Assembly: GCA_947624565.1 (NCBI GenBank)
Contig: CANQKX010000001.1
Coordinates: 44,587-108,586 of the forward strand
Origin: an uncultured Bacilli bacterium
GTDB taxonomy: Bacteria; Bacillota_I; Bacilli_A; RF39; UBA660
DNA: 64,000 nucleotides
Direction of reading: 5' to 3'
Part shown: positions 149 through 53,041 of the stretch, in pieces
Layout: each line of letters opens with the position of its first letter
How positions within the stretch are numbered: position 1 is the stretch's first letter
The notes under the pieces: model-generated
The model's input: only the letters and a program-made list of their open reading frames with translations
What the model was told of the DNA's origin: nothing
Databases searched by the model: none
Made by a program: the position numbers and the translations under genes

Positions 149-194
149 ACTATCATCTCCTTTTAAATATTATATCAAAAAAACTAAAAAACTA

Positions 195-422
195 CTATAA
201 AATAGCAGTTAAATCTTTTTCATTTACAGTTTTTACATCTGTTGCTTGTAGTCCTTTGTCAGTTTTAATTAAGTTAAATTCAACAGTTTGTCCCTCTGAT
301 AAGGTTCTATAACCATCCTGTTTTATGGCAGTATAATGAACAAATATATCTTCATCTACTGAACCATTTATAAATCCATATCCTTTCTCATTGTTAAACC
401 ACTTTATTATTCCTTTTGACAT
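195..422 (-). CDS. csp: cold-shock protein (CspA family, S1-like cold-shock domain)
   Basis: MSKGIIKWFNNEKGYGFI ... typical Csp RNP motifs. A long AT-rich 5'UTR lies upstream, and a TTTACA-N18-TAAAAT promoter is visible on the minus strand. Confidence 0.9.
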   Translation of the reverse strand: MSKGIIKWFNNEKGYGFINGSVDEDIFVHYTAIKQDGYRTLSEGQTVEFNLIKTDKGLQATDVKTVNEKDLTAIL

Positions 423-730
423 CTTTTATTCCTCCTTCTTATGTCCTATATTTATAATACATCTTAAACATTGCTGTATTCAAGAAAAATAAACCCCAAA
501 AATTCGACATATTTTATAAAAATAAAATAAGATTTGTAAATGTAATTATATCATTTTTTTTATGTTTTATATAAAAGTTTATATTTTTTGAAAAAAATTC
601 TAATTTTTTTGCGTTTTTTTATTAAAATACTTCAAAATATACGATTTTTTTTATATTTTTTTTGTTTTTTTCACTAAAAATTCTTTTTAAATAAAAAAAT
701 GATATTATGTTTTTGTAATGAGGAGATTAT

Positions 731-1336
731 ATGAAGAAAAAATTTATTAATTTTTGTTTATCAATTATAACTGATTATAATGATAATTTATCACAAAAAG
801 AAATAGATAAAATGAAATATGGTTTAGAAGGTTTATATCTAACAATAACAAAATTAATTATAATTATCCTTATTTCATTAATTCTTGGAATATTTAAAGA
901 AGTTTTTTTATTGATATTAATTTTTAATGGTATTAGGTTAACTGCCTTTGGAGTTCATGCTAAAAGAAGTATAGATTGCCTTGTATCCTCTTGTTTATTT
1001 TTTATAATATTCCCAATATTATGTATTAAACTTACTATACCAATAATCATAAAACAAATTTTATTTATTCCATTGGTTTTATTAATTGGGATACTTGCTC
1101 CATCTGATACCGAAAAAAGACCATTAAAGAAGAAAAAGAAAAGATTAATATTTAAGTTTTTGTCAATTTTAATAGCCGTAATATATATGTCATTATCTTT
1201 AATAATAAAAGATAATACGATTAGTAATTGTTTTGTGTTTGCTATAATAATTCAAATTATTATAATGCTTCCTATAACATATAAAATATTTGGAGTATCA
1301 TACAACAATTACAAAAAATATGAGGTTAATGTTTAA
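731..1336 (+). CDS. agrB: AgrB-family membrane endopeptidase (AgrD propeptide processing/export)
   Basis: Multi-TM 201-aa protein. The conserved catalytic His...Cys pair is in the motif LTAFGVHAKRSIDC (cf. S. aureus AgrB RRHAHGAHAPSSFWC). A basic loop APSDTEKRPLKKKKKR matches AgrB APAATKKKPIPVRLIKRKK. RBS GAGGAG. Confidence 0.85.
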   Translation: MKKKFINFCLSIITDYNDNLSQKEIDKMKYGLEGLYLTITKLIIIILISLILGIFKEVFLLILIFNGIRLTAFGVHAKRSIDCLVSSCLFFIIFPILCIKLTIPIIIKQILFIPLVLLIGILAPSDTEKRPLKKKKKRLIFKFLSILIAVIYMSLSLIIKDNTISNCFVFAIIIQIIIMLPITYKIFGVSYNNYKKYEVNV

Positions 1337-1360
1337 CCATAGATAAAGGAGGTTGTTTAT

Positions 1361-1480
1361 ATGAAAAAAGTTCTTGCTACTATATTAACAGCTGTTGCTG
1401 CTGTTATTGGAACTGCTGCTACAAGCGCTTGTATTGTTGTTTTATTTGATGAACCAGAAATGCCTGATTCATTAAAATAA
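1361..1480 (+). CDS. agrD: AgrD-like autoinducing peptide precursor (39 aa), missing from the ORF track
   Basis: ATG at 1361 preceded by AAAGGAGG (1346-1353), 24 nt after the agrB stop. MKKVLATILTAVAAVIGTAATSACIVVLFDEPEMPDSLK has a hydrophobic N-terminal leader, a single central Cys (thiolactone candidate) and an acidic C-terminal recognition tail DEPEMP (cf. staphylococcal DEVEVPKEL). Confidence 0.75.
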   Translation: MKKVLATILTAVAAVIGTAATSACIVVLFDEPEMPDSLK

Positions 1481-1500
1481 TTACTTCTTTATTACTACTA

Positions 1501-1535
1501 AAAAATAAGATTAACCAACAATTAATCTTATTTTT
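1501..1535. terminator. bidirectional intrinsic terminator between the convergent agrBD and agrAC units
   Basis: Perfect 14-bp inverted repeat AAAAATAAGATTAA / TTAATCTTATTTTT with a 7-nt loop CCAACAA. U-runs follow on both strands. The stem overlaps the agrC stop codon (1534-1536). Confidence 0.6.
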
Positions 1536-2835
1536 ATTTATAATATATTATTATAGTTTGTTTAAATTTATCATCAATAACATCACTAAATGTATCTATA
1601 TCTTTATTATTCTTCTTTATATCTTTAACTATTGATAATCCAAAACCATGACCTACTCCTTTAGTTGAAAAACCTTTCTTACCAACTTGCGTTACATCAA
1701 CTGAATTATCAAAAGTATTTGTTATAGTAATTATTACACTATTATCTTTTGTCTTTATATCTAACTCTATTTCTTTTAAATCTGCATCTTTTGAAGCATC
1801 TATTGCATTATCTATAAAAACTCCAAGTAATTTTGTTACATCCCTATATGTATTTATATCAAGTTTTGATTCAAATATATTTTTTGTATTATTATCAATA
1901 TAAATATAATGCTTTATTTTATTATCTTCCATTTTACTTAATTTATGATAAATTAAACCTTTTATACCTCCATCAGGAAGAGCACTTAATTGTTTAACAT
2001 CATAATTTTGTCCACCGCGTTGTTCTTGAATTATTAAATCTAAATATTCTTTTAATTTATCTGGCTTTTTAATATACCCTTTTAAAACCATTAATTGATT
2101 ATTAAATTCATGATTTTTCTTACCTTGTTCGTTAATTATTTTTTCATATTTAGATACATATTCCATCATTTCATTATACTTATCTTCTAATTTAAATTTT
2201 TGAAAATTATTGTATACAACATATATCAATGTTACAAATACAAATATTACCATACCTACATTTATATAATAAGATAAACTATTTCCTAAATTATATCTAT
2301 TAAAAGTCATTAAAAATATCATTAATACTACTATTATGGTTATATAAATCCATTCTTTATTATTTTTTACTATTAATTTTTCAAATTTTCTTACTGATTT
2401 ACACAAAAATTTGAATTTTGATATTAAAATTATTGCAATTGAATTAAATAGTGAAGAAAATAATACAGAAAATTCGTGATTTGCATATGTATTTAAATCT
2501 AGTTTTAATATAAACAAAACTATCAAGGATAAGACCAATTCAAAAATAAATGCAAATATTTCATAAACTACAGCATAATACACACACTTTGATATATTTT
2601 TATTAAATAAAGTAAAATATAATGCTAAAATCATCATTACAATATTAAAAGATAATCTTGTAACTCCTTCAAAAAAAGTATAAATTAATACAAAAGATGG
2701 AAATAATATTAATACAAATTTTATAAATTTTTTTATATCTTTTTTTTCATTTGAAAAATTTGATATGGATATAATTATAACTATTGATGAAATTATAGAA
2801 CTTAATACAATATTTATTAAATTTATCCAATTCAT
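1534..2835 (-). CDS. agrC: AgrC-like sensor histidine kinase (HPK10 family; multi-TM sensor plus GHKL ATPase)
   Basis: N-terminal ~6-7 TM helices. H-box KNHEFNNQL, N-box GVFIDNAIDAS, G-boxes GVGHGFGLSIV. A 4-nt overlap with the upstream response regulator. Confidence 0.8.
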   Translation of the reverse strand: MNWINLINIVLSSIISSIVIIISISNFSNEKKDIKKFIKFVLILFPSFVLIYTFFEGVTRLSFNIVMMILALYFTLFNKNISKCVYYAVVYEIFAFIFELVLSLIVLFILKLDLNTYANHEFSVLFSSLFNSIAIILISKFKFLCKSVRKFEKLIVKNNKEWIYITIIVVLMIFLMTFNRYNLGNSLSYYINVGMVIFVFVTLIYVVYNNFQKFKLEDKYNEMMEYVSKYEKIINEQGKKNHEFNNQLMVLKGYIKKPDKLKEYLDLIIQEQRGGQNYDVKQLSALPDGGIKGLIYHKLSKMEDNKIKHYIYIDNNTKNIFESKLDINTYRDVTKLLGVFIDNAIDASKDADLKEIELDIKTKDNSVIITITNTFDNSVDVTQVGKKGFSTKGVGHGFGLSIVKDIKKNNKDIDTFSDVIDDKFKQTIIIYYK

Positions 2836-3488
2836 TTATTCACACTCCTTTCTTTTTTTGATTGTTTGACTAAAAACTTTTTATTTTGTTTATTAATATA
2901 ATACATATCATTTTTTTTATAAAATCTATAGTCTAAATTTTTTATTAGAAGTTTAAATGGTGTATATGTTTTATAATAATTATCTTTTGTTTTCACAACA
3001 GTATATTTTTTTATATGATCATGTTTAATAAAATATATGTCTTTAAGGGGTATCTTTAAATTTTTGTTATTAATTTGTATTTTTATATATTTATTAATAT
3101 TTAATGATTCAATTCCTTTAATAATTATTTTTGATAAATTTGATTCATAATCTTCAAATTTCGATACATAATCAAATATCATTAATTTTGATTTTAATGT
3201 ATATGGCAGATATTCAGTATGAGTTGTAGATATTATAATTAAACTATTTAAATCTATATCTCTAATATTTCTAGCTATATCAATACCAGATATATCTTCT
3301 AGTTCTATATCTAAAATGTAAATCTTATTTTCTATGTTGCTTAGTATTATTTTATTTAGTTCTTCTGAATAGTTTGAAAAAGGATATATTCTATAATCAA
3401 TATTATTTTCAAACATTGTTTTATTTATTATATCTATATTTTTTTGTAATATTATTTTATTATCTTCACACACAATAAAATTTACCAT
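2832..3488 (-). CDS. agrA: AgrA-like response regulator (REC + LytTR DNA-binding domain)
   Basis: Receiver domain with the Asp in YILDIELEDISGIDIARNI. C-terminal LytTR-type domain (IKIQINNKNLKIPLKDIYFIKHDHIKKYTVVKTKDNYYKTY). RBS AGGAG. Stop overlaps the agrC start (ATGA). Confidence 0.8.
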   Translation of the reverse strand: MVNFIVCEDNKIILQKNIDIINKTMFENNIDYRIYPFSNYSEELNKIILSNIENKIYILDIELEDISGIDIARNIRDIDLNSLIIISTTHTEYLPYTLKSKLMIFDYVSKFEDYESNLSKIIIKGIESLNINKYIKIQINNKNLKIPLKDIYFIKHDHIKKYTVVKTKDNYYKTYTPFKLLIKNLDYRFYKKNDMYYINKQNKKFLVKQSKKERSVNK

Positions 3489-3513
3489 TTAAACACTCCT
3501 ATTTTTTTAGTCA

Positions 3514-3562
3514 ACAAACTGATTATAACACAAAAATTCCAATTTTTTACAATTTTTGACAT
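3514..3562 (-). promoter_or_regulatory. putative sigma-A promoter for agrA-agrC with an extended -10 (TGTGTTATAAT)
   Basis: Minus-strand reading: ...TTGTAAAAAATTGGAATTTTTGTGTTATAATCAG... The TATAAT is the reverse complement of 3522..3527, with a TG at -14/-15. A 5'UTR of about 25 nt carrying AGGAG follows. Confidence 0.4.
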
Positions 3563-3584
3563 ATTATACGAAAAAAAAGAAAAA

Positions 3585-4655
3585 TTACTTTTTCTTTTTT
3601 ACTTTTTTCTTTATATCATCTTTTATTGTTTTTCTATCAAATAATATATCTGTTGTTAATACAATCCATAAAACTAATATAAATAAAATTATATATATTA
3701 TCTGACCTAACTTAGCATTTTTTAATACATAAACTATAGATGCAAAAGAGAATAATATATTAATAACATATATTATTAATACTGTTTTAACTTGACTTGA
3801 TGTCATTTGTAATAATTGATGATGTAGATGTTTTTTATCACCTTTAGTTGGAGATTCTCCTTTTATTAATCGTCTTGTTATTGCGAAAAATGTATCTAAT
3901 ATTGGTATTGCTAATATTAATATTGGAACAATAAAAGATGTTATTGTTACATTTTTAAATCCTAATAGAGATATAACAGATATCATATATCCTAAAAACA
4001 TAGATCCACTATTACCTAAAAATATTTTTGCGGGATAAAAATTATGAACTAAAAATCCTAATGTTGCACCTATCATTATTAATGATAATGAAGCATCAAG
4101 TCCATTATATATTCCAGTATAATTTATTATAATTGATATTGTTACAAAAAATATTGTAGCAATTCCTCCTGCTAAACCATCAAGTCCGTCTATGAAGTTT
4201 AAACAATTCATTAAGGCAACTATAAATATAATTGTAAGAATTGGGGCAAATACTCCAAAATTTAAATATAAACCATATGCAGATACATCTTGCATCACTA
4301 TATTTCCATAGAATACTACTACACAAGCAGACGCAATTTGTCCAACAAATTGTACTGATGGAGGCAATCTTTTTATATCATCAAATATTCCAAATACTAA
4401 TATAATTATTCCTCCTATTAATATTGATATCATTTGAGGAGTTTGATTACAAAATAGCATATATCCTAATAGGAAGCCAAAAAATATAGCTAATCCACCT
4501 AATTTTGGCATTATTCTATTATGTATATGTCTTCCTCCTGGCAAATCTACTGCATTTATATATACTGCAAGTTTTTTTATAAAAGGTATTATGCACGCTA
4601 CAAAAGCAAACACAATAAATATAACCTTTAAGTTGTTTAATAAATTATTACTCAT
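3585..4655 (-). CDS. tagO: UDP-GlcNAc:undecaprenyl-phosphate GlcNAc-1-phosphate transferase (WecA/TagO; MraY-like GT4 family)
   Basis: Polytopic membrane protein with the MraY/WecA signature NCLNFIDGLDGLAGG, a DD motif (GIFDDI) and a C-terminal basic tail. Confidence 0.8.
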   Translation of the reverse strand: MSNNLLNNLKVIFIVFAFVACIIPFIKKLAVYINAVDLPGGRHIHNRIMPKLGGLAIFFGFLLGYMLFCNQTPQMISILIGGIIILVFGIFDDIKRLPPSVQFVGQIASACVVVFYGNIVMQDVSAYGLYLNFGVFAPILTIIFIVALMNCLNFIDGLDGLAGGIATIFFVTISIIINYTGIYNGLDASLSLIMIGATLGFLVHNFYPAKIFLGNSGSMFLGYMISVISLLGFKNVTITSFIVPILILAIPILDTFFAITRRLIKGESPTKGDKKHLHHQLLQMTSSQVKTVLIIYVINILFSFASIVYVLKNAKLGQIIYIILFILVLWIVLTTDILFDRKTIKDDIKKKVKKKK

Positions 4656-4727
4656 ATAATCACAACTCCATATTACTATTTATAAATTAATTATAACATA
4701 ACATAGTAAAAAAAATAAGTGTTTAAC

Positions 4728-5717
4728 TTATTTTTCAAGTAATTTTATATTATCAAGCATTACTGCTGTACCTTCTGCTACACAGGTAAGGGGTGATTCT
4801 GCAATTGATATTGGAACTTTTAATTCTTGTTTTAATAGTTCACTTATGCCCGATAAAAGTGCTCCTCCACCGGTAACTACTATACCATTATTTACTATAT
4901 CTGCTGATAACTCTGGCATTGTTTCTTCTAATACTGACTTTGCAGCTGTAACAATTTTATGTGCTGAGTCTTTTAATGCCTCTTCTACTTCTTTAGAAGA
5001 TATACTAATCGAATTTGGCAAACCTGTTACTAAATCTCTTCCTCTTATTGTCATCTTTTCTTTTTTAGCATCTGGATAGACAGTTCCAACTTTTATTTTT
5101 ACATCCTCTGCAGTTTTCTCTCCTATTAATAATTTATATTTATTTTTAACATATTTTATTATTTCTTGATCAAATAAATCTCCTGCAACCCTAATAGATT
5201 TACTTGTTACAATATCACCTAAAGATAATATTGCAATATCTGTAGTCCCCCCACCTATATCAATTACCATTGATGCAGATGGTTTTGATATATCTAATCC
5301 TGCACCTATTGCTGCTACTTTTGGTTCTTCTTCTACATAAACTTTTCTAGCGCCTGCTGATTCTGCTGCTTCCCTAATAGCATTTCTTTCAACCTGTGTA
5401 ATATTTGATGGACAGCATATTAATATTCTTGGTTTTGAAAAAATTCCTTTTGCCTTTATCTTTTTTATAAAATTATTTAACATTGCTTGTGTAAGTTCAA
5501 AATCAGCGATTACTCCATCTTTTAATGGTCTAATAGAACTTACTTTACCTGGCGTTCTACCTAACATTTGATGTGCTTCTTCTCCAACTGCTAATACTTC
5601 TTTAGTTTCTGAATTTATTGCTACTACACTTGGTTCATTAAGAACAATACCTTGCCCTTTTACATATATTAAGACATTTGCTGTTCCTAAATCTATTCCA
5701 ATATCTTTACTTAACAA
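4728..5717 (-). CDS. mbl: rod-shape-determining actin homologue MreB/Mbl
   Basis: DIGIDLGTANVLIYVKGQGIVLNEPSVVA ... DIGGGTTDIAILS. Canonical MreB phosphate/adenosine motifs. Adjacent to spoIIID, as mbl is in Bacillus. Confidence 0.9.
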   Translation of the reverse strand: MLSKDIGIDLGTANVLIYVKGQGIVLNEPSVVAINSETKEVLAVGEEAHQMLGRTPGKVSSIRPLKDGVIADFELTQAMLNNFIKKIKAKGIFSKPRILICCPSNITQVERNAIREAAESAGARKVYVEEEPKVAAIGAGLDISKPSASMVIDIGGGTTDIAILSLGDIVTSKSIRVAGDLFDQEIIKYVKNKYKLLIGEKTAEDVKIKVGTVYPDAKKEKMTIRGRDLVTGLPNSISISSKEVEEALKDSAHKIVTAAKSVLEETMPELSADIVNNGIVVTGGGALLSGISELLKQELKVPISIAESPLTCVAEGTAVMLDNIKLLEK

Positions 5718-5985: not shown

Positions 5986-6033
5986 ACACCTCTATAATAA
6001 AATATATAATTTTATAATTATTTTATGATTATT

Positions 6034-6669
6034 TTATATTTCACTTATCTTTTTATCAAAATAATTTACTGGATTTACATATTTACCATCTTTTATAAGT
6101 TCAAATAATAAAGAATTTTCTGATGTTTCCCCAAGTTCAAGTTTACCACTTTTACCAATTATATCTCCTTGATTCAATAATTGTCCTTTTTGAACATCTA
6201 CTGTTGATAATCCTTCGTATGTACTTATTAAATTATTTGAATGCTTTACTTCTACAACGTTTCCTAGTAATTCATCCTTTTTTACATCCAACACTGTACC
6301 ATCTAATATTGAAATTATATCAAAACTCTCATCTGATTTATAAAGTACACCTGAATTTTGCATATAAGTATTATTATAATAAATAATTGCTTTTTGTTTT
6401 TCTTCATCTGTTGAATTTGAATCATAGAATCCTTTTGATATTTGTACTTTTTCAGAAGAATATGGTTTTAATATTGTTACCTCTTCTGCGACTACTGGAA
6501 TGTTACTTGTAATTATACTGTTATTAACATATGTATAATTATTATTATCATCACTTGATACTTTTTTATTTTGTAAATTATCAAGCATAACAAGTGACAT
6601 TAATAAAGCTGCGAATGCTACACCATAAATAGCTGGCATTACAAATGGTTTTAATTTCTTTTTTTCCAT
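6034..6669 (-). CDS. spoIIQ: M23/LytM-domain membrane protein, SpoIIQ-like (likely degenerate, non-catalytic)
   Basis: N-terminal TM. C-terminal LytM fold (GNVVEVKHSNNLISTYEGLS...GDIIGKSGK...LLFELIKDGKYVNP). The second His of the HxH motif is replaced (LLFEL instead of LHFE). Lies between spoIID and spoIIID as in Clostridia. Confidence 0.5.
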   Translation of the reverse strand: MEKKKLKPFVMPAIYGVAFAALLMSLVMLDNLQNKKVSSDDNNNYTYVNNSIITSNIPVVAEEVTILKPYSSEKVQISKGFYDSNSTDEEKQKAIIYYNNTYMQNSGVLYKSDESFDIISILDGTVLDVKKDELLGNVVEVKHSNNLISTYEGLSTVDVQKGQLLNQGDIIGKSGKLELGETSENSLLFELIKDGKYVNPVNYFDKKISEI

Positions 6670-6723
6670 ATTTTTTCACCTCATTTTAAGTTTGGTGAAA
6701 AATTTAAATTTTATACATATTTT

Positions 6724-7659
6724 TTATAATTTTTGTATTTCTGTTCCTTGATAATAATATTTAAGTATATCTTTATAATTTTTATTTTGTTTAGCGAGTG
6801 CATTCGCACCATATTGACTAAGTCCTACCCCATGTCCAAAACCTTTTGTTGTTATTTTTACTGTATTATTTTCTTTTTTTATTGTAAAATCATTTGATCT
6901 TAGTGAAAGTTTATTTTGAAAATTTCTACCTGTAAATTCCACTTGATTTATTTTTATACTTGATACTCTCCCAGATTCAGTTCTTTTTTCATCTGTTATA
7001 TTTAAATTATCATTATATTCTATTCCTAATTTTGAGTAAAAATCTGATAAATTAAAAGTTTTTTCACTATAAAAATTATTAGTTTCATTTTCATCAAAAC
7101 TACTATCTACTACTTTTAAGTAAGGTAAGTCTTGTCCAAATACATTTTTATTATCTTCTGTTTTACCGTTACTTGTAGAAAAGAAAAATGCATATATTAT
7201 TTTATTATCATATGTAACATATTCACCTTTTGTTTCATTAACACATTTTTTTATTTTGTTAATATATTTATCATAATTATCTTTCCATTTTTCTTTTAAT
7301 TCTTCATCTGTTTGATAAACTTGAGTTTGTGTATCATCAGTTACATCATATGGTAAATCTTTTTTATTTTCAATTTGCTTTAATGCATAAGTTCTTGCAG
7401 CGACTGCCTGTGCTTTTATTGCTTCTTCTTCAAAACTTGCAGGTACTTCTGAAGATACTACTCCAATTAAATAATCTTCTAAATTTAAAACTTCTATATT
7501 ATTATCTTTTAATACTCTTATAGTTTGTTCAGTTTTATTTGAATTAAAACCAGATATATATTTTTTTACATCATATTCATAAAAAAAATTAGTAATTATA
7601 AGAGGTACTATAATAATACTCACTAATACTACTAATATTTTCTTCATAGTCTTCACCAA
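6724..7659 (-). CDS. spoIID: stage II sporulation protein D (SpoIID/LytB-domain lytic transglycosylase)
   Basis: Signal anchor followed by a SpoIID domain with EEEAIKAQAVAARTYAL and GFGHGVGLSQYGANALA motifs. Confidence 0.85.
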   Translation of the reverse strand: MVKTMKKILVVLVSIIIVPLIITNFFYEYDVKKYISGFNSNKTEQTIRVLKDNNIEVLNLEDYLIGVVSSEVPASFEEEAIKAQAVAARTYALKQIENKKDLPYDVTDDTQTQVYQTDEELKEKWKDNYDKYINKIKKCVNETKGEYVTYDNKIIYAFFFSTSNGKTEDNKNVFGQDLPYLKVVDSSFDENETNNFYSEKTFNLSDFYSKLGIEYNDNLNITDEKRTESGRVSSIKINQVEFTGRNFQNKLSLRSNDFTIKKENNTVKITTKGFGHGVGLSQYGANALAKQNKNYKDILKYYYQGTEIQKL

Positions 7660-7670
7660 TAAATTATATG

Positions 7671-8108
7671 CTAGTTTTTTAATTCATATTCACTAATTTT
7701 ATTATTTCTTCTAACATGTCTATCTAAATTAGAAAATGGTGTATTTATAAATTCTTCAATCATTCTTTTTACTTTTTTCAAATTTATTTCACTACTAAAT
7801 GAAATTATATTTGCGTTATTATCATTTCTTGTTATAATTACATCTTTAATAGAATTTACTCTTGCACATCTTATTCCTTTAACTTTATTACATGCGATGC
7901 TCATTCCTATTCCACTTCCACATATTGCAATTCCAAAATCTACTTTCTTATTATTTATTGCTTTCCCTAACTTAAATGCATAATCTGGATAATCTACACT
8001 TTCTTTTGAATTAGTTCCATAATCTATAAATTCTATATTTTTCATTTCTTTTATTATTTTGCTTTTTAAATCATAACCTCTATGATCTGATATTATACCT
8101 ATTTTCAT
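7671..8108 (-). CDS. rpiB: ribose-5-phosphate isomerase B (RpiB/LacAB family)
   Basis: MKIGIISDHRGYDLK...CGSGIGMSIACNKVKGIRCA; typical RpiB active-site region. Confidence 0.8.
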   Translation of the reverse strand: MKIGIISDHRGYDLKSKIIKEMKNIEFIDYGTNSKESVDYPDYAFKLGKAINNKKVDFGIAICGSGIGMSIACNKVKGIRCARVNSIKDVIITRNDNNANIISFSSEINLKKVKRMIEEFINTPFSNLDRHVRRNNKISEYELKN

Positions 8109-8388: not shown

Positions 8389-8458
8389 TTTTATTTCTCC
8401 TTCCGCCATAACTAATTTTTAGTTATAGAATTACTAAAATCTTCTATATTATATCAAG

Positions 8459-33074: not shown

Positions 33075-33138
33075 TTTAACACCTCCAGCTCATAAAACAT
33101 TACAATTATATATTTTTTTTAAAAAAAAGTCAATAATT

Positions 33139-33666
33139 TTAATTTTGTGATAACTTTTTTTCTTTATTTTTTCTTTCTGAAATTATTTCTTCTAATACTT
33201 CATCACATATTCCTTCAATTTTTTTGATTGATTCTTTATTTCTTTGGGTGTGACATAAATCAACAAAATAATTATATGATTCTTCGTCTGCTTCTTTATA
33301 TTGGCTTATATCCACATAAGATCTTACATATCCCTTTCTATTATAAGTTGAGGCTATATTTCCTTGAACATCATAAAATGAATAACCAATTTTAACTACA
33401 GAATGAAAATCATTTGAAGCTGATGTATAAATTTTTGAATCATTTTCAAAAATCTTATTCAACATATGTGAAAAATAGTAACAACTTCCTTCCATAAATA
33501 TTGACATTGTAAGTTGATATTTTGTATCTTCGTCTAATTTTTGAAAATCAGAATCAGAATCAAGATATTTTTGAGAAAATTTACTTATAATTGAATCAAT
33601 TACATCTAAAATAGGTTCACTTTGCTTATTTATTAACTCTGATACTTTTTTAAAATAATCTTCCAT
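33139..33666 (-). CDS. hypothetical cytoplasmic protein (no recognisable family) heading the rpmH-rnpA transcription unit
   Basis: 175 aa, acidic/aromatic-rich, no TM. Occupies the position where rpmH normally faces dnaA. Confidence 0.4.
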   Translation of the reverse strand: MEDYFKKVSELINKQSEPILDVIDSIISKFSQKYLDSDSDFQKLDEDTKYQLTMSIFMEGSCYYFSHMLNKIFENDSKIYTSASNDFHSVVKIGYSFYDVQGNIASTYNRKGYVRSYVDISQYKEADEESYNYFVDLCHTQRNKESIKKIEGICDEVLEEIISERKNKEKKLSQN

Positions 33667-33773
33667 AAAAAACCTCTTTCCTTAGAATTTATACAATATT
33701 ATACATTTTTTTAGATAAATTTCAATATTTTTTATAAAAACAATATGATATAATGTAAATAGGAAGTGATTTT

Positions 33774-35135
33774 ATGATAAATATTAAAACTGATTCAAGA
33801 AAAGTTAAGGAAGGAGATACTTTTATAGCAATTAAAAATGTTAATACTGATGGACATGATTTTATTAATCAAGCAATTGAAAATGGAGCTAAAAAAATAA
33901 TTTGTGAACATGGAGAATATCCTGTTGAAACTGTAATTGTTAATAATACAAAAGAATTTTTAAATAAATATTTATATGATAATTATTATGAAAAAATTAA
34001 AGATATGAAATTAATTGGTGTAACAGGAACCAACGGAAAAACAACTATTTGTTATTTAGTTTATCAAATATTGACATTACTTAATAAAAAATGTGCATAT
34101 ATAGGAACAATTGGTTTTTTCTGTGGAAATATAAAAAGAGAATTGAATAACACAACTCCTGATACAGATTTATTATATGAAATGTTTTTAGAAGCAAAAG
34201 AAAATAATTGTGAATATATTGTTATGGAAGTAAGTAGTCATGCCCTTGATAAAAATAGAATTTATGGATTAGAATTTGATGAAGTAGCCTTTACAAATCT
34301 TACACAAGACCATTTAGATTATCACAAAACTATTGAAAATTATATTGAAGCAAAAAAGAAATTATTTTTTAGAACTAGAAATAATAAAATTGCTATTATA
34401 AATGCTGATGATAAATATTATAAAAATTTTCTAAATAAAGATAATAAAAATATTTTGATAAGTGAAAATAATGCAGATTTATCTATTAAAAAAATTAATT
34501 TATCTCATCTTAATACTAATATCATATTTAACTTTGAAAATATTGAATATGAAACTACAATAAATATGATAGGAAAATATAATGTTTATAATTTTTTAAC
34601 AGCCTTGTTACTTGTAAATAAATTAGGATTTGATATAAAAGATATCTTAAAAATTACAAATAAATTAAATGCTCCAAATGGTAGAATGGAGTTAATAAAA
34701 TATAAAACAAATAGTATTTTTATTGATTATGCACATACCCCAGATGCTGTTTTAAATGTTTTAGAAAATGCTAAAGAATATAAAAAAGGAAAAATTATAA
34801 CAATTATTGGTTGTGGAGGGGATAGAGATAGATCAAAAAGACCAATAATGGGAAAAATTGCTGAAGAAAATTCTGATTTTGTTATTTTTACTAATGATAA
34901 TCCAAGAACAGAAGATGAAAATCAAATTATGAATGATATTATTAATGGGTTAAGTAAAAAAAATCATGAAATAATTTTAGATAGAGAAGAGGCTATAAAA
35001 AAAGGAATATCCTTATTAAATAATAATGATATATTAATGGTTTTAGGAAAAGGGCATGAAGATTATCAAATAATTGGAAATACAAAATATCATTTTAGTG
35101 ATAAAGAAATAGTTTTGAAATATATTAAAATATAA
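33774..35135 (+). CDS. murE: UDP-N-acetylmuramoyl-L-alanyl-D-glutamate--2,6-diaminopimelate (or L-lysine) ligase MurE
   Basis: Mur ligase P-loop GVTGTNGKTT and a DNPR-type C-terminus (FTNDNPRTED). Slightly short N-terminus. Confidence 0.85.
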   Translation: MINIKTDSRKVKEGDTFIAIKNVNTDGHDFINQAIENGAKKIICEHGEYPVETVIVNNTKEFLNKYLYDNYYEKIKDMKLIGVTGTNGKTTICYLVYQILTLLNKKCAYIGTIGFFCGNIKRELNNTTPDTDLLYEMFLEAKENNCEYIVMEVSSHALDKNRIYGLEFDEVAFTNLTQDHLDYHKTIENYIEAKKKLFFRTRNNKIAIINADDKYYKNFLNKDNKNILISENNADLSIKKINLSHLNTNIIFNFENIEYETTINMIGKYNVYNFLTALLLVNKLGFDIKDILKITNKLNAPNGRMELIKYKTNSIFIDYAHTPDAVLNVLENAKEYKKGKIITIIGCGGDRDRSKRPIMGKIAEENSDFVIFTNDNPRTEDENQIMNDIINGLSKKNHEIILDREEAIKKGISLLNNNDILMVLGKGHEDYQIIGNTKYHFSDKEIVLKYIKI

Positions 35136-35146
35136 GGAGTCTATGT

Positions 35147-36526
35147 ATGAAAAAGATTTTAATAAAAGATATTTTAAATATATGCAATGCAGAATTATTT
35201 TTTGGAAAGAAAAATTTAATATGTAATTATTTTTCTAATGATACTAGAAAAATAAAAAAAGGGGATATATACATTGGTATTAAAGGAAATAACTTTGATG
35301 GAAATAAATTTTATGATGATGCTTTTCAAAAAGGCGCAAAAGCATGCATTTTAGAAAAAAAATATTTTGATAAAAATAATTTTGATAAAATAAAATATAA
35401 AAATAAAACTATAATTCTTGTTGATAATTCTATTGAAGCCTTACAAAAAATTGCAGAGTATAAACGTTCTTTATATAATATACCAGTAATAGCAGTAACG
35501 GGTAGTGTTGGTAAAACAAGTACAAAAGATATAATTGCAAGCACATTAAGTGAAAAATATAAAGTTTTGAAAACTGAAGGTAATTATAATAATCATATTG
35601 GTTTACCATTAACTATATTAAAGTTAAATAAACATAATGCAATGGTTTTAGAAATGGGAATGAATAATTTAGGAGAAATTCATTTATTAAGTAAAATTGC
35701 TAAACCTACAATTGCAGTTATTACAAATATAGGAACAGCTCATATTGGTAATTTAGGATCTAGAGAAAATATATTAAAAGCAAAACTTGAAATTACAGAT
35801 TTTTTAGATGAAAATGGAGTTCTTATTATAAATAATGATAATGATTTATTACACGAAAATTTAAATTTCTTAAAAAATAAGTTAAAATTAATTACAATCG
35901 GTATTGAAAATGATAGTGATTTTATAGCAAAAAATATTAATTTTGATATATTTAAAAGTAAATTTGAAATAGAAAATAACGTAATAAAAATAAATGTAGG
36001 AGGATATCCTTATATTTATAACTCTTTATTTGCATATTCTATTGGTAAATATTTAAATATTAAAGAAAATAAAATAATAAAAGGAATAGAAAATTTTAAA
36101 TTATCAAATAATAGAATGGAAAAAATAATTAATAATAAGGGAATAACTATTATAAATGATACATATAATGCTAGTTATGATTCAACTATATATGCCATTG
36201 ATTTAGTTGATAAATCTAATTATAAAAGAAAAATTTTATTACTTGCAGACATCTTAGAACTTGGTAAATTTTCTAAAGAAATCCACAGTAAAATAGGTAA
36301 TTATATTATTAATAAAAATATAGATTATGTAATTTTGGTGGGTAATGAAGTAAAATATATTAAAGATATTTTAGAAAAAAATAATTTTAATAATATATAT
36401 TTATTTAATAAAGAAGAAGAAACTTATGACTTTTTAGATAACTTTTTACAAAAAGAAGATATTATATTAATAAAAGGTTCTCATGCAATGAATTTAATTA
36501 ATATTGTTAACTATTTAAAAAAGTGA
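35147..36526 (+). CDS. murF: UDP-N-acetylmuramoyl-tripeptide--D-alanyl-D-alanine ligase MurF
   Basis: P-loop AVTGSVGKTSTK and a Mur ligase middle and C-terminal domain. A terminator hairpin AAGTGAA-aataaa-TTCACTT plus T-run overlaps its stop (36520-36548). Confidence 0.85.
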   Translation: MKKILIKDILNICNAELFFGKKNLICNYFSNDTRKIKKGDIYIGIKGNNFDGNKFYDDAFQKGAKACILEKKYFDKNNFDKIKYKNKTIILVDNSIEALQKIAEYKRSLYNIPVIAVTGSVGKTSTKDIIASTLSEKYKVLKTEGNYNNHIGLPLTILKLNKHNAMVLEMGMNNLGEIHLLSKIAKPTIAVITNIGTAHIGNLGSRENILKAKLEITDFLDENGVLIINNDNDLLHENLNFLKNKLKLITIGIENDSDFIAKNINFDIFKSKFEIENNVIKINVGGYPYIYNSLFAYSIGKYLNIKENKIIKGIENFKLSNNRMEKIINNKGITIINDTYNASYDSTIYAIDLVDKSNYKRKILLLADILELGKFSKEIHSKIGNYIINKNIDYVILVGNEVKYIKDILEKNNFNNIYLFNKEEETYDFLDNFLQKEDIILIKGSHAMNLINIVNYLKK

Positions 36527-36540
36527 AAATAAATTCACTT

Positions 36541-36740
36541 TTTTTGTGGAAAAAATATGACTTTTTTATTATAATATAAGGAAAAATTTAATTATAAACA
36601 TTATCAACATATTTGTGGATAAATATAAAATATTTATAAACATGTTGTTTATATAAAATTTGTGGAAATTGTGGAAAACTATAGAATTTTATTATTTTAT
36701 AACAATTTTTATAAACTTTTATTGTTGATAATTTTTTAAC
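36541..36740. promoter_or_regulatory. oriC-associated DnaA-box cluster and dnaA promoter region
   Basis: DnaA-box 9-mers: TGTGGATAA perfect at 36614-36622; one-mismatch boxes TTATCAACA (36601), TGTGGAAAA (36545, 36670), TGTGGAAAT (36661) and TGTTGATAA (36723). Confidence 0.65.
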
Positions 36741-36814
36741 ACATTATTTTTTTGTTGAAATAAAAGAAAAATAGGTTATAATTAAGTTATAAATACTTCA
36801 GGGGAGATGATAAT

Positions 36815-38185
36815 ATGAACATTGATAATATTTGGAATCAATTTTTAAATATAATAAAAACAAGATTATCTTCTCTTTCATATAATACTTGGTTTAGCTC
36901 GTCTAAACTTGTTGAATTAAATGAAGAACATGCTGTTATAATTGTTCCAACGATTGCTCATAAAAAACATTTATCTGAATCATATATAGATATTATAAAT
37001 GAAATATTTAATGATATAACAGGAACTAATTTTAATATTGAATTTGTATTAGAAAATGAATATGAAAAAAATAAAAATCAAACTAGTAAAAATATTGAAA
37101 ATGATATAGAAGAATATGGTGTTCCTTATAATAGTAGTGAGAAAGCTAATTTAAATCCAGATTATACTTTTGAAAATTTTATAGTAGGTGAAAGTAATAG
37201 ATTTGCACAAGCGACTGCTCTTGCTGTTGCTGAAAATCCTGGAAAAATGTATAATCCTTTATTTATATATGGAAATAGCGGATTAGGTAAAACCCATTTA
37301 ATGCAAGCAATTGGAAATTATATAATAAAAAATAGTAATAAAAGAGTATTATATGTTACTAGTGATCAATTCATCAATGATTTTCTTGGTTTAAATAAAA
37401 AAGATAAAGATGGAACTAATTTTGATTATGTTGAAATATTTAAAGATAAATATAGAAATATAGATGTATTAATTATTGATGATATTCAATTTTTAGGGAA
37501 TGCTCCAAAAACACAAAATGAATTTTTTCACACATTTAATACATTATATGATGATAAAAAACAAATAATTATTTCTTCTGATTCTTCTCCTGATGATTTA
37601 AAACATTTAGAGGATAGGTTAAGAACAAGATTTAATTGGGGATTAAAAGTAAATATTTTTCCACCTGATAATAATCTTAGAAAAGAAATATTAAGAAAAA
37701 AAATGGCAAATATGGATTTTTCTAGACATATTACTGAGGATGCGATTGATTATATTGCTAACATGTGTGCTTCTGATGTAAGAAGTTTAGAAGGTGCTTT
37801 AACAAGAGTTTGTGCTTATTCAACTATCTTTTTTGAAGAAGAAATTACACTTGATCTTGCTGTTGAAGCTTTAAAAGGAACAATTTCTCAAACTTCTAAC
37901 TTTAAAAACGATATTCAAAAGATACAAAGAATTGTTGCTGAATATTATAATGTATCTGTTGAAGATTTAAAATCAAAAAAAAGAGTAGCAAGTATTGCTT
38001 TTCCTAGACAAATTGCTATTTACTTATCAAGATTATTAACTGATGAATCATTTCCAAGAATTGGTATGGAATTTGGAGGAAGAGATCATTCAACTGTAAT
38101 TCATTCATGTGATAAAATTGAAAAAGAAATTAAAAATAATAAGCAATTAGAAAAAATAATAGAAGAAATTAAATTAAAATTATAA
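36815..38185 (+). CDS. dnaA: chromosomal replication initiator protein DnaA
   Basis: AAA+ Walker A GNSGLGKTHL, DnaA signature and a C-terminal DNA-binding domain. Confidence 0.95.
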   Translation: MNIDNIWNQFLNIIKTRLSSLSYNTWFSSSKLVELNEEHAVIIVPTIAHKKHLSESYIDIINEIFNDITGTNFNIEFVLENEYEKNKNQTSKNIENDIEEYGVPYNSSEKANLNPDYTFENFIVGESNRFAQATALAVAENPGKMYNPLFIYGNSGLGKTHLMQAIGNYIIKNSNKRVLYVTSDQFINDFLGLNKKDKDGTNFDYVEIFKDKYRNIDVLIIDDIQFLGNAPKTQNEFFHTFNTLYDDKKQIIISSDSSPDDLKHLEDRLRTRFNWGLKVNIFPPDNNLRKEILRKKMANMDFSRHITEDAIDYIANMCASDVRSLEGALTRVCAYSTIFFEEEITLDLAVEALKGTISQTSNFKNDIQKIQRIVAEYYNVSVEDLKSKKRVASIAFPRQIAIYLSRLLTDESFPRIGMEFGGRDHSTVIHSCDKIEKEIKNNKQLEKIIEEIKLKL

Positions 38186-38363
38186 TATGTTGAAAAGTTT
38201 AAGTTATCTACATTTTAATTAACAATAATAAACAGACAAAAATTCTATAAAATGTTATAAAATAAAGAAAATTTATACTTTTAAACATTTTAAACAGTAA
38301 TAATAAAAATAAAATCATTAAATTAATAATATATATGATATAATTCATTGTAGGAGGTTTAAA
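38186..38363. promoter_or_regulatory. dnaA-dnaN intergenic region: DnaA box plus AT-rich putative DNA-unwinding element
   Basis: TTATCTACA (38204-38212, one mismatch) followed by >100 bp of >85% AT. Confidence 0.4.
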
Positions 38364-39485
38364 ATGAAGTTTAGCATTAAAAAAGAAATATTATTAGAAA
38401 ATTTAAATAATGTATCAAAGGCAGTATCAACAAAAAATGTTATACCTGTTCTTGGAGGAATTAAATTTAATTTAACTAAAGAAGGATTATTTTTAACAGC
38501 TACTAATAGTGATATAGATATAGAAAGTTTTATTGATAAAAAATATATAGATAAAATAGAATCAACAGGAACAATTATTATTCAAGGAAAATATCTTCTT
38601 GAAATAATTAGAAAATTACCGGATGGTCTTATTAATATAGAAATAATAGATGGATTAAAAATATTAATATATACTCAAAATTCAAATTTCAATTTAAATG
38701 GTATTGATTCATCAGAATTTCCTAATATAAATTTAGATATATCTACAAATCCTATTATACTAAGTAAGAGAGTAATAAAAAATATAATTAATCAAACTTT
38801 ATTTGCAACATCTATGCAAGAAGCAAGACCAATATTAACAGGAATTAATATAAAAATAGAAAATGATAAAATGGAATGCGTTGCAACAGATTCATATAGA
38901 CTAGCAAAAAAAGTGGTTAATTTAGATAATAGTGTAGATAATTTAATAAATATAGTTATTCCTGGAAAAAATATTGGAGAACTTAATAAAATATTAACTG
39001 ATGATGATGATAATGTTGAAATACATATATTTTCTAATAAAATATTATTTAAGTTTGATAATTTATTATTTCAATCTAGATTATTAAATGGAACTTTTCC
39101 TGATACTTCAAGATTAATTCCAGATGAATTTGAAATAGAGATAAAAGCTGATTTAAATGAATTCTTTGGTGTAATTGATAGAGCAGCTTTATTAACATCT
39201 GAAAAAGAGAAAAATGTAATAAAGTTTGAAACAAACAAAAATGAAGTAACTGTAAGTTCAAATACTCCAGAAATAGGTAGAGTAGAAGAAAAATTAATGG
39301 TTACTAAAAATAATGATAAAGAAATAAAAATATCTTTCTCATCTAAGTTTATGATGGAAGCATTAAGAACAATTAATAGTAAAGATATAAAAATATTATT
39401 AAATTCTGATATAAAGCCAATTATTTTAAAAACTGACGAAGATGATGGTTTAACACAATTATTATTACCTATTAAGACATATTAA
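38364..39485 (+). CDS. dnaN: DNA polymerase III beta sliding clamp
   Basis: MKFSIKKEILLENLNNVSKAVS...; three-domain clamp, 373 aa. Confidence 0.95.
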   Translation: MKFSIKKEILLENLNNVSKAVSTKNVIPVLGGIKFNLTKEGLFLTATNSDIDIESFIDKKYIDKIESTGTIIIQGKYLLEIIRKLPDGLINIEIIDGLKILIYTQNSNFNLNGIDSSEFPNINLDISTNPIILSKRVIKNIINQTLFATSMQEARPILTGINIKIENDKMECVATDSYRLAKKVVNLDNSVDNLINIVIPGKNIGELNKILTDDDDNVEIHIFSNKILFKFDNLLFQSRLLNGTFPDTSRLIPDEFEIEIKADLNEFFGVIDRAALLTSEKEKNVIKFETNKNEVTVSSNTPEIGRVEEKLMVTKNNDKEIKISFSSKFMMEALRTINSKDIKILLNSDIKPIILKTDEDDGLTQLLLPIKTY

Positions 39486-39600
39486 AAGAAAAAAATGTAT
39501 TTTTTCTTTTTTTATCCTAAAAATCGACAAATTTTGCGAAAAAAAGTGTTATTAATATAGGCAAATTATTATTTTTAATAATTTTAAAGGAGGGGATTTT

Positions 39601-40047
39601 ATGGAACAATATGAAATAAATTCTAAAACAATAGCTCTTATACCAATTGAAGAAAATATGAGTAAAGTAATTGAAGAGGATAATTCTTTTGTAGTAAAAA
39701 TGAAGACTATGGAAATTATAAAAAGAAGTTGTGAATATTTTGGAAGTACTTATTTAGGAAGACATATAGGAACAAAAAAATTAACTGGAATTTCTTATAA
39801 ATCTCCAATAATAATTGAAGAAAGTAAAAATATTATATATTTTCCAACTTCATCACCAAGACAAAATGAATGTATATGGATGTCATTAAAACATATATTA
39901 AATTATAAAGAAAATAATGGTAAATCAATAGTATTCTTTGAAAATGGTGAGAATATAGAAATAGATGTATCATATAATTCTTTTGATAATCAATACTTAA
40001 GAGCTACAAAATTAGAATCTATTTTAAGAAAAAGAAAAATGAATTAA
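39601..40047 (+). CDS. comK: ComK-family transcription factor (short form, 148 aa)
   Basis: Matches B. subtilis ComK blocks: YEINSKTIALIPIEEN ~ YEVNGATIAVLPEE; RSCEYFGSTYLGRHIGT...SYKSPIII...IYFPTSSPRQNECIWMS ~ RSCRFFGSSYAGRKAGT...SHKPPIMV...FLFPTLSSTRPQCGWIS; ISYNSFDNQYLRA ~ ISYNSFENQVYRT. RBS AAAGGAGGGG. Confidence 0.65.
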   Translation: MEQYEINSKTIALIPIEENMSKVIEEDNSFVVKMKTMEIIKRSCEYFGSTYLGRHIGTKKLTGISYKSPIIIEESKNIIYFPTSSPRQNECIWMSLKHILNYKENNGKSIVFFENGENIEIDVSYNSFDNQYLRATKLESILRKRKMN

Positions 40048-40183
40048 TACAAAAATAATAAATTTTTGTATTTTTTTATAAAAAAGTAAAAAAAAGCCCT
40101 ATTTTGTGTTATAATTATATTGTGTGTATAGTAGCATTATTTTAGTATAAAGGTGATAATATGGTCATAAAAATAGGTTTAAA

Positions 40184-41290
40184 ATGTTTCTAGAAAAAAT
40201 TGAACTTAAAAATTTTAGAAATTATTCAAATTTAAAATTAAATTTTGATAAAAATATAAACATTTTTATAGGAAATAATGCTCAGGGGAAAACCAATATA
40301 TTAGAAAGTATATATTTTTTATCAATTACTAAATCTCATAGAACAAATAAAGAAATCTTTTTGATAAAAAATAATGAGATTTTTTCCAAAGTCACAGGAA
40401 TTATTAAAGACAATTCAAATTTTTCAAAAAAATATGAAATTATTATTAATAAACAAGGTAAAAGAGTACTTATTAATGATAATCTTATAAAAAAGATAAG
40501 TGATTACTTATCTAATATAAATGTTGTAATGTTTTGTCCAGATGATTTAGAGATAATAAAAGGTACTCCTTCTAATAGAAGATCTTTTCTAAATATTGAA
40601 ATAGGACAATTAAACAATTTTTATATAAAACATTTAAATAATTATAATAGACTATTAAAAACAAGAAATGATTATTTAAAAAATAGTAAAGAAAAGTTTG
40701 ATAATGTTTATTTTGAGATATTGACTAATAAATTAATTGACGAAAATATAAAAATAATTAATTTTAGAAATGAATTTATTAATAATTTAAATAAATATAT
40801 TTCTAAAATATATAAAGACATAACAGGTAAAAAAAATATATACTTAAAATACGAAACTTTTATAGATATTAATTCAGAAGAAAATATGATTAAATCTATG
40901 AAAGAAAAATACGATAAAAATTTAAATAATGAAATATTTCAGGGGGTTACTCTATTTGGTACACATAAAGATGATTTTTCGGTATACATAGATGATATAA
41001 AAATAAATAATTATGGATCTCAAGGACAACATAGAATTGCAATATTATGTATTAGATTATCAGAGATTGAGATATTTAAAAAAGAAAAAAAGAAAAATCC
41101 TATATTATTATTGGATGATATATTCAGTGAATTAGATGAAATTAAAAAAAATAATATTATTAGATATATAGATAATGATTTACAAGTTTTTATAACATCT
41201 ACAGATATTGAAAATATAGATAATAAATTGCTTAAAAATTCAAATATTTTCTATGTAAAAGAAGGAAACGTAATAAGAAAGGAAGATTAG
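40184..41290 (+). CDS. recF: DNA replication and repair protein RecF
   Basis: Walker [15 protein letters not shown] and an SMC-like signature. Confidence 0.9.
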
Positions 41291-41294
41291 AGTT

Positions 41295-43214: not shown

Positions 43215-43230
43215 GAAGGAGTATAAAATA

Positions 43231-45675: not shown

Positions 45676-45767
45676 ATAGTCTTTTTTTTACAAAAAGCGA
45701 ACAAAATATTTCCCGGGAAATATTTTACGAACAAAAAGCGAACAAAAAAATAAAAAATAATATTTAT

Positions 45768-45796: not shown

Positions 45797-45802
45797 TTTA
45801 AT

Positions 45803-45880
45803 GCACAACGGGAATATTGGAACCAGGTCAGGATAGAAATATAGCAGCCTTAACAATCAATTTTCGTGTGTGCTTTTTTT
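45803..45880 (+). ncRNA. ffs: signal recognition particle RNA (small 4.5S-type ffs/scr)
   Basis: CCAGGUCAGGAUAGAAAUAUAGCAGCC aligns position-for-position with the universally conserved SRP domain IV CCAGGUCAGGUCCGGAAGGAAGCAGCC (GNRA-type GAAA tetraloop, conserved flanks). The 5' GCACA pairs with the 3' UGUGC, followed by a U7 terminator. tadA follows it, as in B. subtilis (tadA-scr-dnaX). Confidence 0.65.
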
Positions 45881-45892
45881 GTGGAGGAATGT

Positions 45893-52490: not shown

Positions 52491-53041
52491 AATTAATTGT
52501 GGGTTTAGGTAATCCAGGTAAAGAATATGAAAATACAAGACATAATGTAGGATTTGATATAATAGACAAATATGTATTAATTAAAAATATTGAAAAAAGT
52601 AAATCGAAATTTAATGGCATATACTATGAAACAACAATAAAAAATGAAAAAGTAATATTATTAAAACCACAAAAATATATGAATTTATCTGGTGAGGTTG
52701 TTAAAAAATTTGTAGATTATTTTAAAATAAAAATAGAAGATATTTTAATAATACATGATGATTTAGATCAAGATATTGGTAAAATAAAATTAAAACAAAA
52801 TAGTTCATCCGGTGGTCATAATGGAATTAAAAATATAGAATTAAATTTAAATACAAAAGATTATAAAAGATTAAAAATTGGTATTTCAAATAATAAAATG
52901 ATAGATACAAAAGATTTTGTATTAGGTAAATTTAGTAATGAAGAAAGAAAAATAATAGACAAATCAATAGATATATGTTTAAATATAATCGATGATTTTT
53001 TTGAGTTAGATTTTAATAAACTAATGAATAAATATAATTAA
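52487..53041 (+). CDS. pth: peptidyl-tRNA hydrolase
   Basis: MKLIVGLGNPGKEYENTRHNVGF. Confidence 0.9.
   Translation: MKLIVGLGNPGKEYENTRHNVGFDIIDKYVLIKNIEKSKSKFNGIYYETTIKNEKVILLKPQKYMNLSGEVVKKFVDYFKIKIEDILIIHDDLDQDIGKIKLKQNSSSGGHNGIKNIELNLNTKDYKRLKIGISNNKMIDTKDFVLGKFSNEERKIIDKSIDICLNIIDDFFELDFNKLMNKYN

Follow-up and report, generated by a model that had tools for sequence, protein, structure and literature searches.

An agr-type quorum-sensing locus with convergent units and a shortened regulator output domain in uncultured gut Bacilli

The agr system is the textbook case of peptide quorum sensing, and nearly everything known of its mechanism derives from loci whose LytTR regulator switches on the operon that encodes it. 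The DNA analysed here, hereafter the window, is a stretch of 64,000 nucleotides from an uncultured Bacilli bacterium (assembly GCA_947624565.1, contig CANQKX010000001.1, positions 44,587 to 108,586), and at positions 731–3488 it encodes an agr-type locus in which the signal genes agrB and agrD converge on the genes for a response regulator and an AgrC-type sensor histidine kinase. On comparison with its homologs, this regulator is descended from AgrA-type proteins composed of a receiver (REC) and a LytTR domain, where the receiver is intact and the output domain is shortened and divergent. The autoinduction loop is probably broken here through the loss of this output domain and of its binding sites, while the module itself is chromosomal and vertically inherited in an uncultured gut Bacilli lineage.

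The locus comprises agrB (731–1336, plus strand, 201 amino acids), a membrane peptidase gene whose product processes AgrD; agrD (1361–1480, plus strand, 39 amino acids), which encodes the autoinducing-peptide precursor; the gene of the AgrC-type sensor histidine kinase (1534–2835, minus strand, 433 amino acids); and that of the response regulator (2832–3488, minus strand, 218 amino acids). These four open reading frames, with their strands and coordinates, had been given in a sequence-only reading of this DNA and are reproduced exactly by the open reading frame list, as is the overlap of four nucleotides between regulator and kinase genes, a true ATGA at 2832–2835, where TGA is the stop codon of the regulator and ATG the start codon of the kinase. 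The stop codons of agrBD and of the regulator-kinase unit face each other across 53 nucleotides, in a window with a G+C content of about 22%.

The receiver domain of the regulator (residues 1–125; 3114–3488, minus strand) scores 28.8 bits against Pfam Response_reg, slightly under the cut-off of 30.2, and contains the acidic pocket, phospho-acceptor aspartate and conserved Thr/Ser and Lys characteristic of CheY-like receivers; the residues E8, D9, D60 (codon 3309–3311), T88 and K110 are invariant in 16 homologs. An AlphaFold model of the regulator built from 16 homologs has a mean predicted local distance difference test score (pLDDT) of 82.7, rising to about 90 in the receiver, and Foldseek returns receiver-domain matches with template-modelling scores of 0.8 normalised to the target. 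The sequence-only reading had named the gene agrA, which holds for the receiver domain but not for the remainder of the protein, as LytTR is incomplete and the Pfam LytTR profile gives no match to the window regulator even at an expectation value (E) of 10 or below.

A full LytTR domain has ten strands, a region of the form F-x-R-x-H-R-S-x-x-V-N, and C-terminal strands carrying DNA-contacting arginine. What follows the receiver in the window regulator (residues 126–218; 2832–3113, minus strand) is a shortened, divergent LytTR-derived domain ending in the basic tail KKERSVNK. A hidden Markov model of the LytTR domains of the full-length relatives aligns residues 127–203 to its positions 3–79 of 114 (E 1.8e-10), and the regulator-family profile (alignment A1) covers only residues 4–79 of the 103 in the AgrA LytTR crystal construct 3bs1. 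The stretch equivalent to the HR motif (F-x-x-x-H-R-(A/S)-x-x-V-N) reads FYKKNDMYYIN, where ND replaces HR. Seven strands and a short helix (134–199), followed by a helix of low confidence, are modelled by AlphaFold in place of the complete fold of ten strands and about 100 residues, and the whole protein is about 15–35 residues shorter than its full-length relatives of 231–250 amino acids. By these alignments, the regulator lacks roughly the final third of LytTR as well as the conserved HR motif. A LytTR end hidden by a frameshift was ruled out, as the regulator stop codon overlaps the kinase start codon and kinase alignments with relatives begin at residue 1. No separate LytTR protein was found in the window, where a weak match at 52457–53038 looks spurious.

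The shortening is one stage of a series. A scan of one genome per species yielded 46 loci, onto which eight window proteins were mapped, and the window locus itself was found on ENA and Logan gut contigs. The block spoIIID-mreB-(GT4)-regulator-agrC, followed by the converging agrD-agrB and then csp, occurs in about 30 species-level metagenome-assembled genomes (MAGs) of gut Bacilli, which are labelled as uncultured Bacilli, Tenericutes, Clostridium sp. CAG:433 and similar, come from the guts of human, deer, rabbit and mouse, and contain regulators whose identity to that of the window drops to 31%. The convergent core, a regulator and kinase facing AgrB, is also present in three Clostridia MAGs (L040, L041 and L043) and on the Alkaliphilus plasmid pB6464; a Clostridium tagluense plasmid has yet another gene order. 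The layout, which had been taken as unusual, is therefore not special to the window genome, and the convergent architecture is a recurrent form of the agr gene family.

Regulators of the deep relatives and of Clostridia are 231–250 amino acids long and match Pfam LytTR with 62–68 bits over positions 2–96 of 98, whereas those of the window clade (L001–L007) have 207–223 amino acids and a partial or undetectable LytTR domain. The Pfam profile is thus matched in full in L013 and L040, in part in L005 (22.0 bits, positions 3–65 of 98), and not at all in the window, L003 and L007. In five sister species (L008–L012, each at about 6001–6435) the regulator at the orthologous position is receiver-only, with 136–144 amino acids, and the start of the kinase gene is no more than about 50 nucleotides away. 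More than 70 protein clusters (among P0041–P0120) of 130–145 amino acids are likewise receiver-only and share 65–76% identity with the window receiver, so that this form is widespread. In neighbour-joining trees of MreB, Csp and AgrB combined and of the receiver, the receiver-only genomes nest inside the shortened clade, which suggests one or two complete losses of the output domain after an initial shortening.

Loss of the DNA-binding domain is accompanied by the absence of its presumptive sites. Loci with full-length regulators contain direct repeats with a period of 21 bp at −150 to −167 of agrB. In L013, L016–L024 and L027 this is a conserved bipartite repeat, [CT]GAAAGGT[AC]A N12 [CT]GAAAGGTA, to which the full-length LytTR regulators of these loci likely bind; in L015 the same position is occupied by TTTTCTTTG N12 TTTTCTTTG, and the motifs vary by sub-clade (GAAAGGTAA, TTTTCTTTG and ATTCACACA). 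A repeat matrix trained on seven loci recovered three held-out full-length loci with 10.6–19.8 bits (p ≤ 0.025). Across the 10 distinct window-clade loci its scores did not exceed 3.9 bits (p > 0.14), and repeats spaced by 18–24 bp were not found there either. The best match to the relatives' motif upstream of the window agrB has 1.1 bits (p = 0.23), and paired direct repeats of the kind expected for positive feedback, of about 9 bp with a spacer of 12–13 bp, are absent from window positions 423–730, in DNA of about 80% A+T. A de novo search, which gave repeats in 3–4% of shuffled sequences, detected them at 7 of the 23 loci with full-length regulators and at none of the 10 with shortened or receiver-only ones.

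The sequence-only reading had raised 9-bp LytTR direct repeats as a possibility upstream of both units, and no convincing repeat was found in either region. Both contain only low-complexity A/T inverted repeats, apart from a 10-nucleotide tandem (TTCCAATTTT/TTACAATTTT; 3537–3556) that is judged to be promoter-spacer sequence. A relaxed search gave one possible eroded relic (AAAAGTTTA N12 AAAATTCTA; 573–602, plus strand) at −158, which is homologous in position to the relatives' repeats and not significant. That the locus is decoupled from classical autoinduction, as proposed earlier, is plausible, but the cause put forward for it, convergence, does not hold: convergence alone does not break feedback, because the full-length relatives pair the same layout with intact repeats, and the cause would instead be that the output domain is shortened and the repeats are missing.

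The two units have their own conserved control elements. Since a consensus promoter scan is uninformative in this DNA, cross-species footprinting was used instead; a consensus sigma-70 scan of positions 150–4800 (20% G+C) returned 48 sites against 54 expected, which is chance level, and the evidence for the −10 elements is therefore their conservation and not the motif match itself. The extended −10 element of the regulator-kinase unit (TGTTATAAT on the minus strand, 3530–3522), which the sequence-only reading had assigned to agrA, is retained as TGnTATAAT upstream of the regulator in 10 of 11 related loci, with a −35-like spacing that is not conserved. The extended −10 element of agrBD (TGATATTAT; 700–708, plus strand) stands about 12 nucleotides ahead of the AGGAG ribosome-binding site at 721–725. 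In nine of the 10 species of the window clade the form TGnTA(A/T)nAT is found about 12–17 nucleotides ahead of the agrB ribosome-binding site, and the deeper clade lacks the element at that position. The csp-proximal half of the csp-agrB intergenic region (430–520) is also strongly conserved across species (…ATTCAAGAAAAA…CCCAAAAWTTCGACA…), has no Rfam match, and probably corresponds to the minus-strand promoter and 5′ leader of csp.

Between the agrD and agrC stop codons lies a bidirectional intrinsic terminator hairpin (1501–1535), which overlaps the agrC stop codon by two nucleotides. It has a 14-bp stem, folding free energies (dG) of −10.2 kcal/mol on the plus strand and −11.6 kcal/mol on the minus strand (z −6.3 and −3.6), and is bordered by an A-run and, at its opposite end, a T-run. 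A simple terminator scan finds nothing there, as it needs three G-C pairs and the hairpin contains one. The shared hairpin described in the sequence-only reading is nevertheless real. Each of the 11 related loci has an equivalent perfect A/T-rich hairpin with adjoining A- and T-runs and a stem sequence of its own (z −3.5 to −8.3). Because each unit has a conserved extended −10 element and a conserved bidirectional terminator stands between them, agrBD and the regulator-kinase pair are very likely separate transcription units, in support of the independent transcription proposed before. The single G-C pair, which may let termination leak, and the short distance of 53 nucleotides between the facing stop codons would suit an alternative in which convergent transcription itself is the regulatory device, with collision or antisense read-through setting the switch. 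This alternative is most improbable, as the strong hairpin is conserved in position in all 11 loci and is doubled between the convergent stop codons of L003 and L004, which indicates selection for insulation, and as relatives whose classical binding repeats are intact have this layout too. At the other end of the regulator-kinase unit, the upstream GT4 gene ends in a weak A/T hairpin with a T-run (3573–3600, minus strand; dG −8.2, z −2.3), which is possibly a leaky terminator and of which the T-run is conserved among relatives.

The products of the signal genes belong to known agr families. AgrB matches PF04647 with 110.9 bits (cut-off 23), has four to five hydrophobic segments, and contains the His/Cys catalytic dyad as H76-x6-C83. 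AgrD matches TIGR04223 with 33.1 bits (cut-off 19) and the Pfam AgrD profile with 20.1 bits, under the cut-off of 22.7; it is encoded directly downstream of agrB and has a ring cysteine followed by an acidic, proline-containing tail, as is expected of AgrD peptides. Cys24 (codon 1430–1432, plus strand) opens the predicted ring region C24–F29 (CIVVLF; 1430–1447, plus strand), after which comes DEPEMPDSLK. The pattern C-x5-DEPxMP is kept in the AgrD of 25 loci, where the five residues after the cysteine are hypervariable, all being freely varying hydrophobic residues (IVVLF, VIVIL, FIVLL, IIFMF, LFGLF and others). This set of variants represents a panel of candidate gut signalling peptides. In L005, an extra polytopic membrane open reading frame of 424 amino acids (6625–7899) lies between the regulator and kinase genes and contains an AgrB domain (PF04647, 29.8 bits, residues 238–342) and a soluble C-terminal tail; it would be a second, unusual AgrB-like protein within the sensing unit.

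The kinase comprises a multi-pass membrane sensor (residues 1–205; 2221–2835, minus strand) with six to seven hydrophobic segments and a GHKL kinase core (residues 206–433) containing the H-box histidine H242 (codon 2110–2112), an N-box at residue 342 and a G-box at residue 395. It matches HATPase_c_5 (PF14501) with 50.6 bits (cut-off 22), and the staphylococcal AgrC equivalog NF046015 aligns to its residues 14–422 with 77 bits, far under the cut-off of 500. The agr-type identity claimed from sequence alone is thereby upheld for AgrB, AgrD (by TIGR04223) and the HATPase_c_5 kinase, which pass the profile tests; the failure of profile searches, which that reading had named as grounds for rejecting its assignment, formally applies to LytTR alone, where the clade profile still recovers partial homology. 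In L009 (Clostridium sp. CAG:433) the kinase region 6437–7722 is matched in two frames (6437–6805 and 6805–7722), and its longest open reading frame is just 301 amino acids long, which points to a frameshift or an assembly error.

The progressive shortening and final loss of the output domain, the fast evolution of the C-terminal domain of the regulator (the window and L003 share 50% identity in it and 82% in the receiver) and the apparently frameshifted kinase gene of L009 are what would be seen if the output domain were eroding as the whole module nears loss, with nothing functional being signalled. Against such decay, which is very unlikely, the module is kept in at least 10 species with identities of 61–82% for AgrB, 62–75% for the kinase core and 65–82% for the receiver (80–92% for MreB), the AgrD cysteine and DEPEMP motif and the phosphorylation residues of the receiver are maintained across the same species, the promoters and the terminator are conserved, and the genes are intact apart from L009. 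Between the window and L003, whose MreB proteins are 92% identical, AgrB shares about 81% identity (82% and 80% in its halves) and the kinase core 75%, while the kinase sensor domain shares 51%. Conserved enzymatic cores together with a co-diversifying peptide ring and sensor form the pattern expected of a working signal-receptor pair, which disfavours simple decay.

A mechanism consistent with these observations, and moderately probable as a whole, may be outlined as follows. The agrBD unit would be transcribed from the extended −10 promoter near its start codon, and AgrB would cleave AgrD and cyclise it at Cys24 to a thiolactone, for which family membership predicts the ring CIVVLF or CIVVL. 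A separate extended −10 promoter would drive the regulator and kinase genes, whose translation would be coupled by the ATGA overlap, with the bidirectional terminator insulating the two units. The kinase is predicted to detect the peptide via its fast-evolving membrane domain and to phosphorylate D60 of the regulator, which presumably does not activate the promoter driving peptide production, so that autoinduction would not occur. The receiver would carry the main output through a protein partner, and the residual C-terminal domain would be dispensable or auxiliary. In this outline the gene identities, the conserved layout, the promoter and terminator footprints, the shortening of the domain and the lack of repeats are observations, while the chemistry of the peptide, the phosphotransfer, the missing feedback and the kind of output, with its new partner, are inferred. 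The fuller form of the proposal, that agr in this lineage no longer works through a DNA-binding AgrA and that a regulator on its way to a bare receiver, a state already reached in the sister species and in the more than 70 protein clusters, would pass the signal, without autoinduction, to a protein partner such as the sporulation or envelope machinery, is put forward tentatively, as one possibility among several.

Several points weigh against this mechanism. The residual C-terminal domain is an open frame with invariant positions in seven species, is modelled by AlphaFold as a confident beta-rich fold (pLDDT 83–93, residues 131–200), and may still be able to bind DNA, and its conserved basic tail, KKERSVNK, may derive from the C-terminal SRNxKK motif, in which the DNA-contacting arginine of AgrA lies. 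That repeats are absent is a negative finding from DNA of 80% A+T, a detectable repeat is also missing from several loci with full-length regulators, and the contrast of 7/23 with 0/10 is suggestive only (Fisher p = 0.07). Transcription from the GT4 gene may read through into the regulator gene. Relative to MreB, the receiver is no more conserved among shortened regulators (identity ratio 0.80) than in the full-length clade (0.88), and there is therefore no positive sign of a new protein partner.

Part of this evidence would also fit a classical autoinducing agr system, in which the shortened LytTR domain binds A/T-rich sites of a specificity unseen by the searches and, like AgrA at P2, switches on agrBD and perhaps its own promoter as well. 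Those seven species have kept the C-terminal domain in a folded and partly conserved form, the best Foldseek match of the whole regulator is the full-length REC-LytTR protein ComE (E 4e-11, 212 columns), the weak pair at 573–602 lies exactly at the position of the relatives' sites, and the binding motifs of the sub-clades clearly differ. Such a system is rather unlikely, as roughly the final third of the LytTR domain is missing and ND stands in place of HR, as the extended −10 elements are conserved among the 10 species of the clade but a repeat is not, and as sister species drop the domain fully yet keep agrB, agrD, agrC and the receiver.

In a widespread uncultured lineage of the mammalian gut, selection thus maintains the peptide, the enzyme that processes it, its receptor kinase and the receiver, and the same lineage sheds the DNA-binding domain and the self-activation sites stepwise, from full to shortened to absent. 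If signalling persists, the output of agr need not be transcriptional via AgrA, and these species would be natural comparators for the contribution of positive feedback; if the receiver does act through a protein partner, this would be an output logic of agr not previously described. If there is no signalling, the locus is an ordinary agr variant, whose layout is common.

The genomic setting is as the sequence-only reading had described it, between a cold-shock gene and genes of the cell wall and sporulation: csp, encoding a cold-shock protein, is at 195–422 (minus strand), a GT4/WecA-like transferase gene at 3585–4655 (minus strand), and the other neighbours encode MreB, SpoIIID, an M23 peptidase and SpoIID. 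A scan of the whole window with Rfam gave no RNAIII-like or other RNA near the agr locus, and its sole matches are a small signal recognition particle RNA (45797–45882, plus strand, 54.9 bits) and an L31 ribosomal-protein leader (8397–8428, minus strand, 35.1 bits). The window also contains the replication origin region (33100–45700), with dnaA (36815–38185), which is about 33 kb from the agr locus, dnaN (38364–39485) and gyrB (41295–43214). The GC skew switches sign near 34 kb, and gene orientation reverses at about 33.7 kb, beside the origin region. At this strand-switch point lies an open reading frame of 175 amino acids (33139–33666, minus strand) with a Phage_YunG-like domain (39.6 bits), and two Mur-ligase genes occupy 33774–36526.

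Neither agr units in convergent orientation nor agr regulators made up of a receiver alone were found explicitly described in the searchable literature, and the same holds for the stepwise loss of the DNA-binding domain of an agr regulator together with its binding sites. As compared with agrBDCA of Staphylococcus aureus, the window locus shares the His/Cys peptidase AgrB, an AgrD with a cysteine and an acidic, proline-containing tail, a kinase of the HPK10 type and a regulator of REC-LytTR descent. The S. aureus genes form one operon, whereas those of the window form two convergent units, and in contrast to the AgrA boxes, P2 and RNAIII of S. aureus, the window has no repeats with 21-bp spacing upstream of agrB, about the last third of LytTR is missing, and neither an RNAIII-like RNA nor any other Rfam RNA is found nearby. 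The kinase reaches 77 bits where the staphylococcal AgrC equivalog requires 500, and AgrD has one more residue between the cysteine and the acidic tail, from which a six-membered ring is predicted.

In Clostridium acetobutylicum the peptide has a six-membered ring, as predicted for the window, and the two agr units are co-directional, with the kinase gene first and a full-length AgrA as regulator. The window resembles this system in that signal production and sensing are split into two units, and differs from it in that the units converge and the regulator gene precedes the kinase gene. The agrBD and agrCA genes of C. acetobutylicum are predicted to be separate transcription units, according to work cited in PMC3754575. 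The chromosomal agr2 locus of Clostridioides difficile R20291 has the order regulator, kinase, agrD, agrB (agrACDB; PMC3754575), which is the same as in the window when compared by order only, and its host is also a gut spore-former. The AgrA protein of C. difficile is predicted to have a full LytTR domain (PMC3754575), and the four agr2 genes are treated as one transcript (PMC3754575, PMC4453554).

Plasmid pB6464 of Alkaliphilus sp. B6464 (L050) has a layout identical to that of the window, with overlapping genes for regulator and kinase that face AgrD- and AgrB-like open reading frames on the opposite strand; it differs in being plasmid-borne and in encoding a RefSeq LytTR family regulator of 248 amino acids with a GHKL kinase. 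A named strain whose plasmid record is public and annotated therefore has the convergent architecture. The AgrD-like open reading frame of the plasmid (4102–4305) contains serine, not cysteine, before the hydrophobic stretch and the EEPTIP tail (…SVILIFEEPTIPDSL), and this precursor would give a lactone instead of a thiolactone; the AgrB-like open reading frame (4226–4855) is missing from the plasmid gene table. A further comparison is offered by the gut Bacilli MAGs of the same lineage with full LytTR domains (L013, L016–L024 and L027), whose loci are orthologous to that of the window, share its convergent layout and have mreB and csp as neighbours, too. They lack an extended −10 element beside the ribosome-binding site, and they contain both a regulator of 236–239 amino acids that matches Pfam LytTR with 62 bits over positions 2–96 of 98 and the repeat upstream of agrB.

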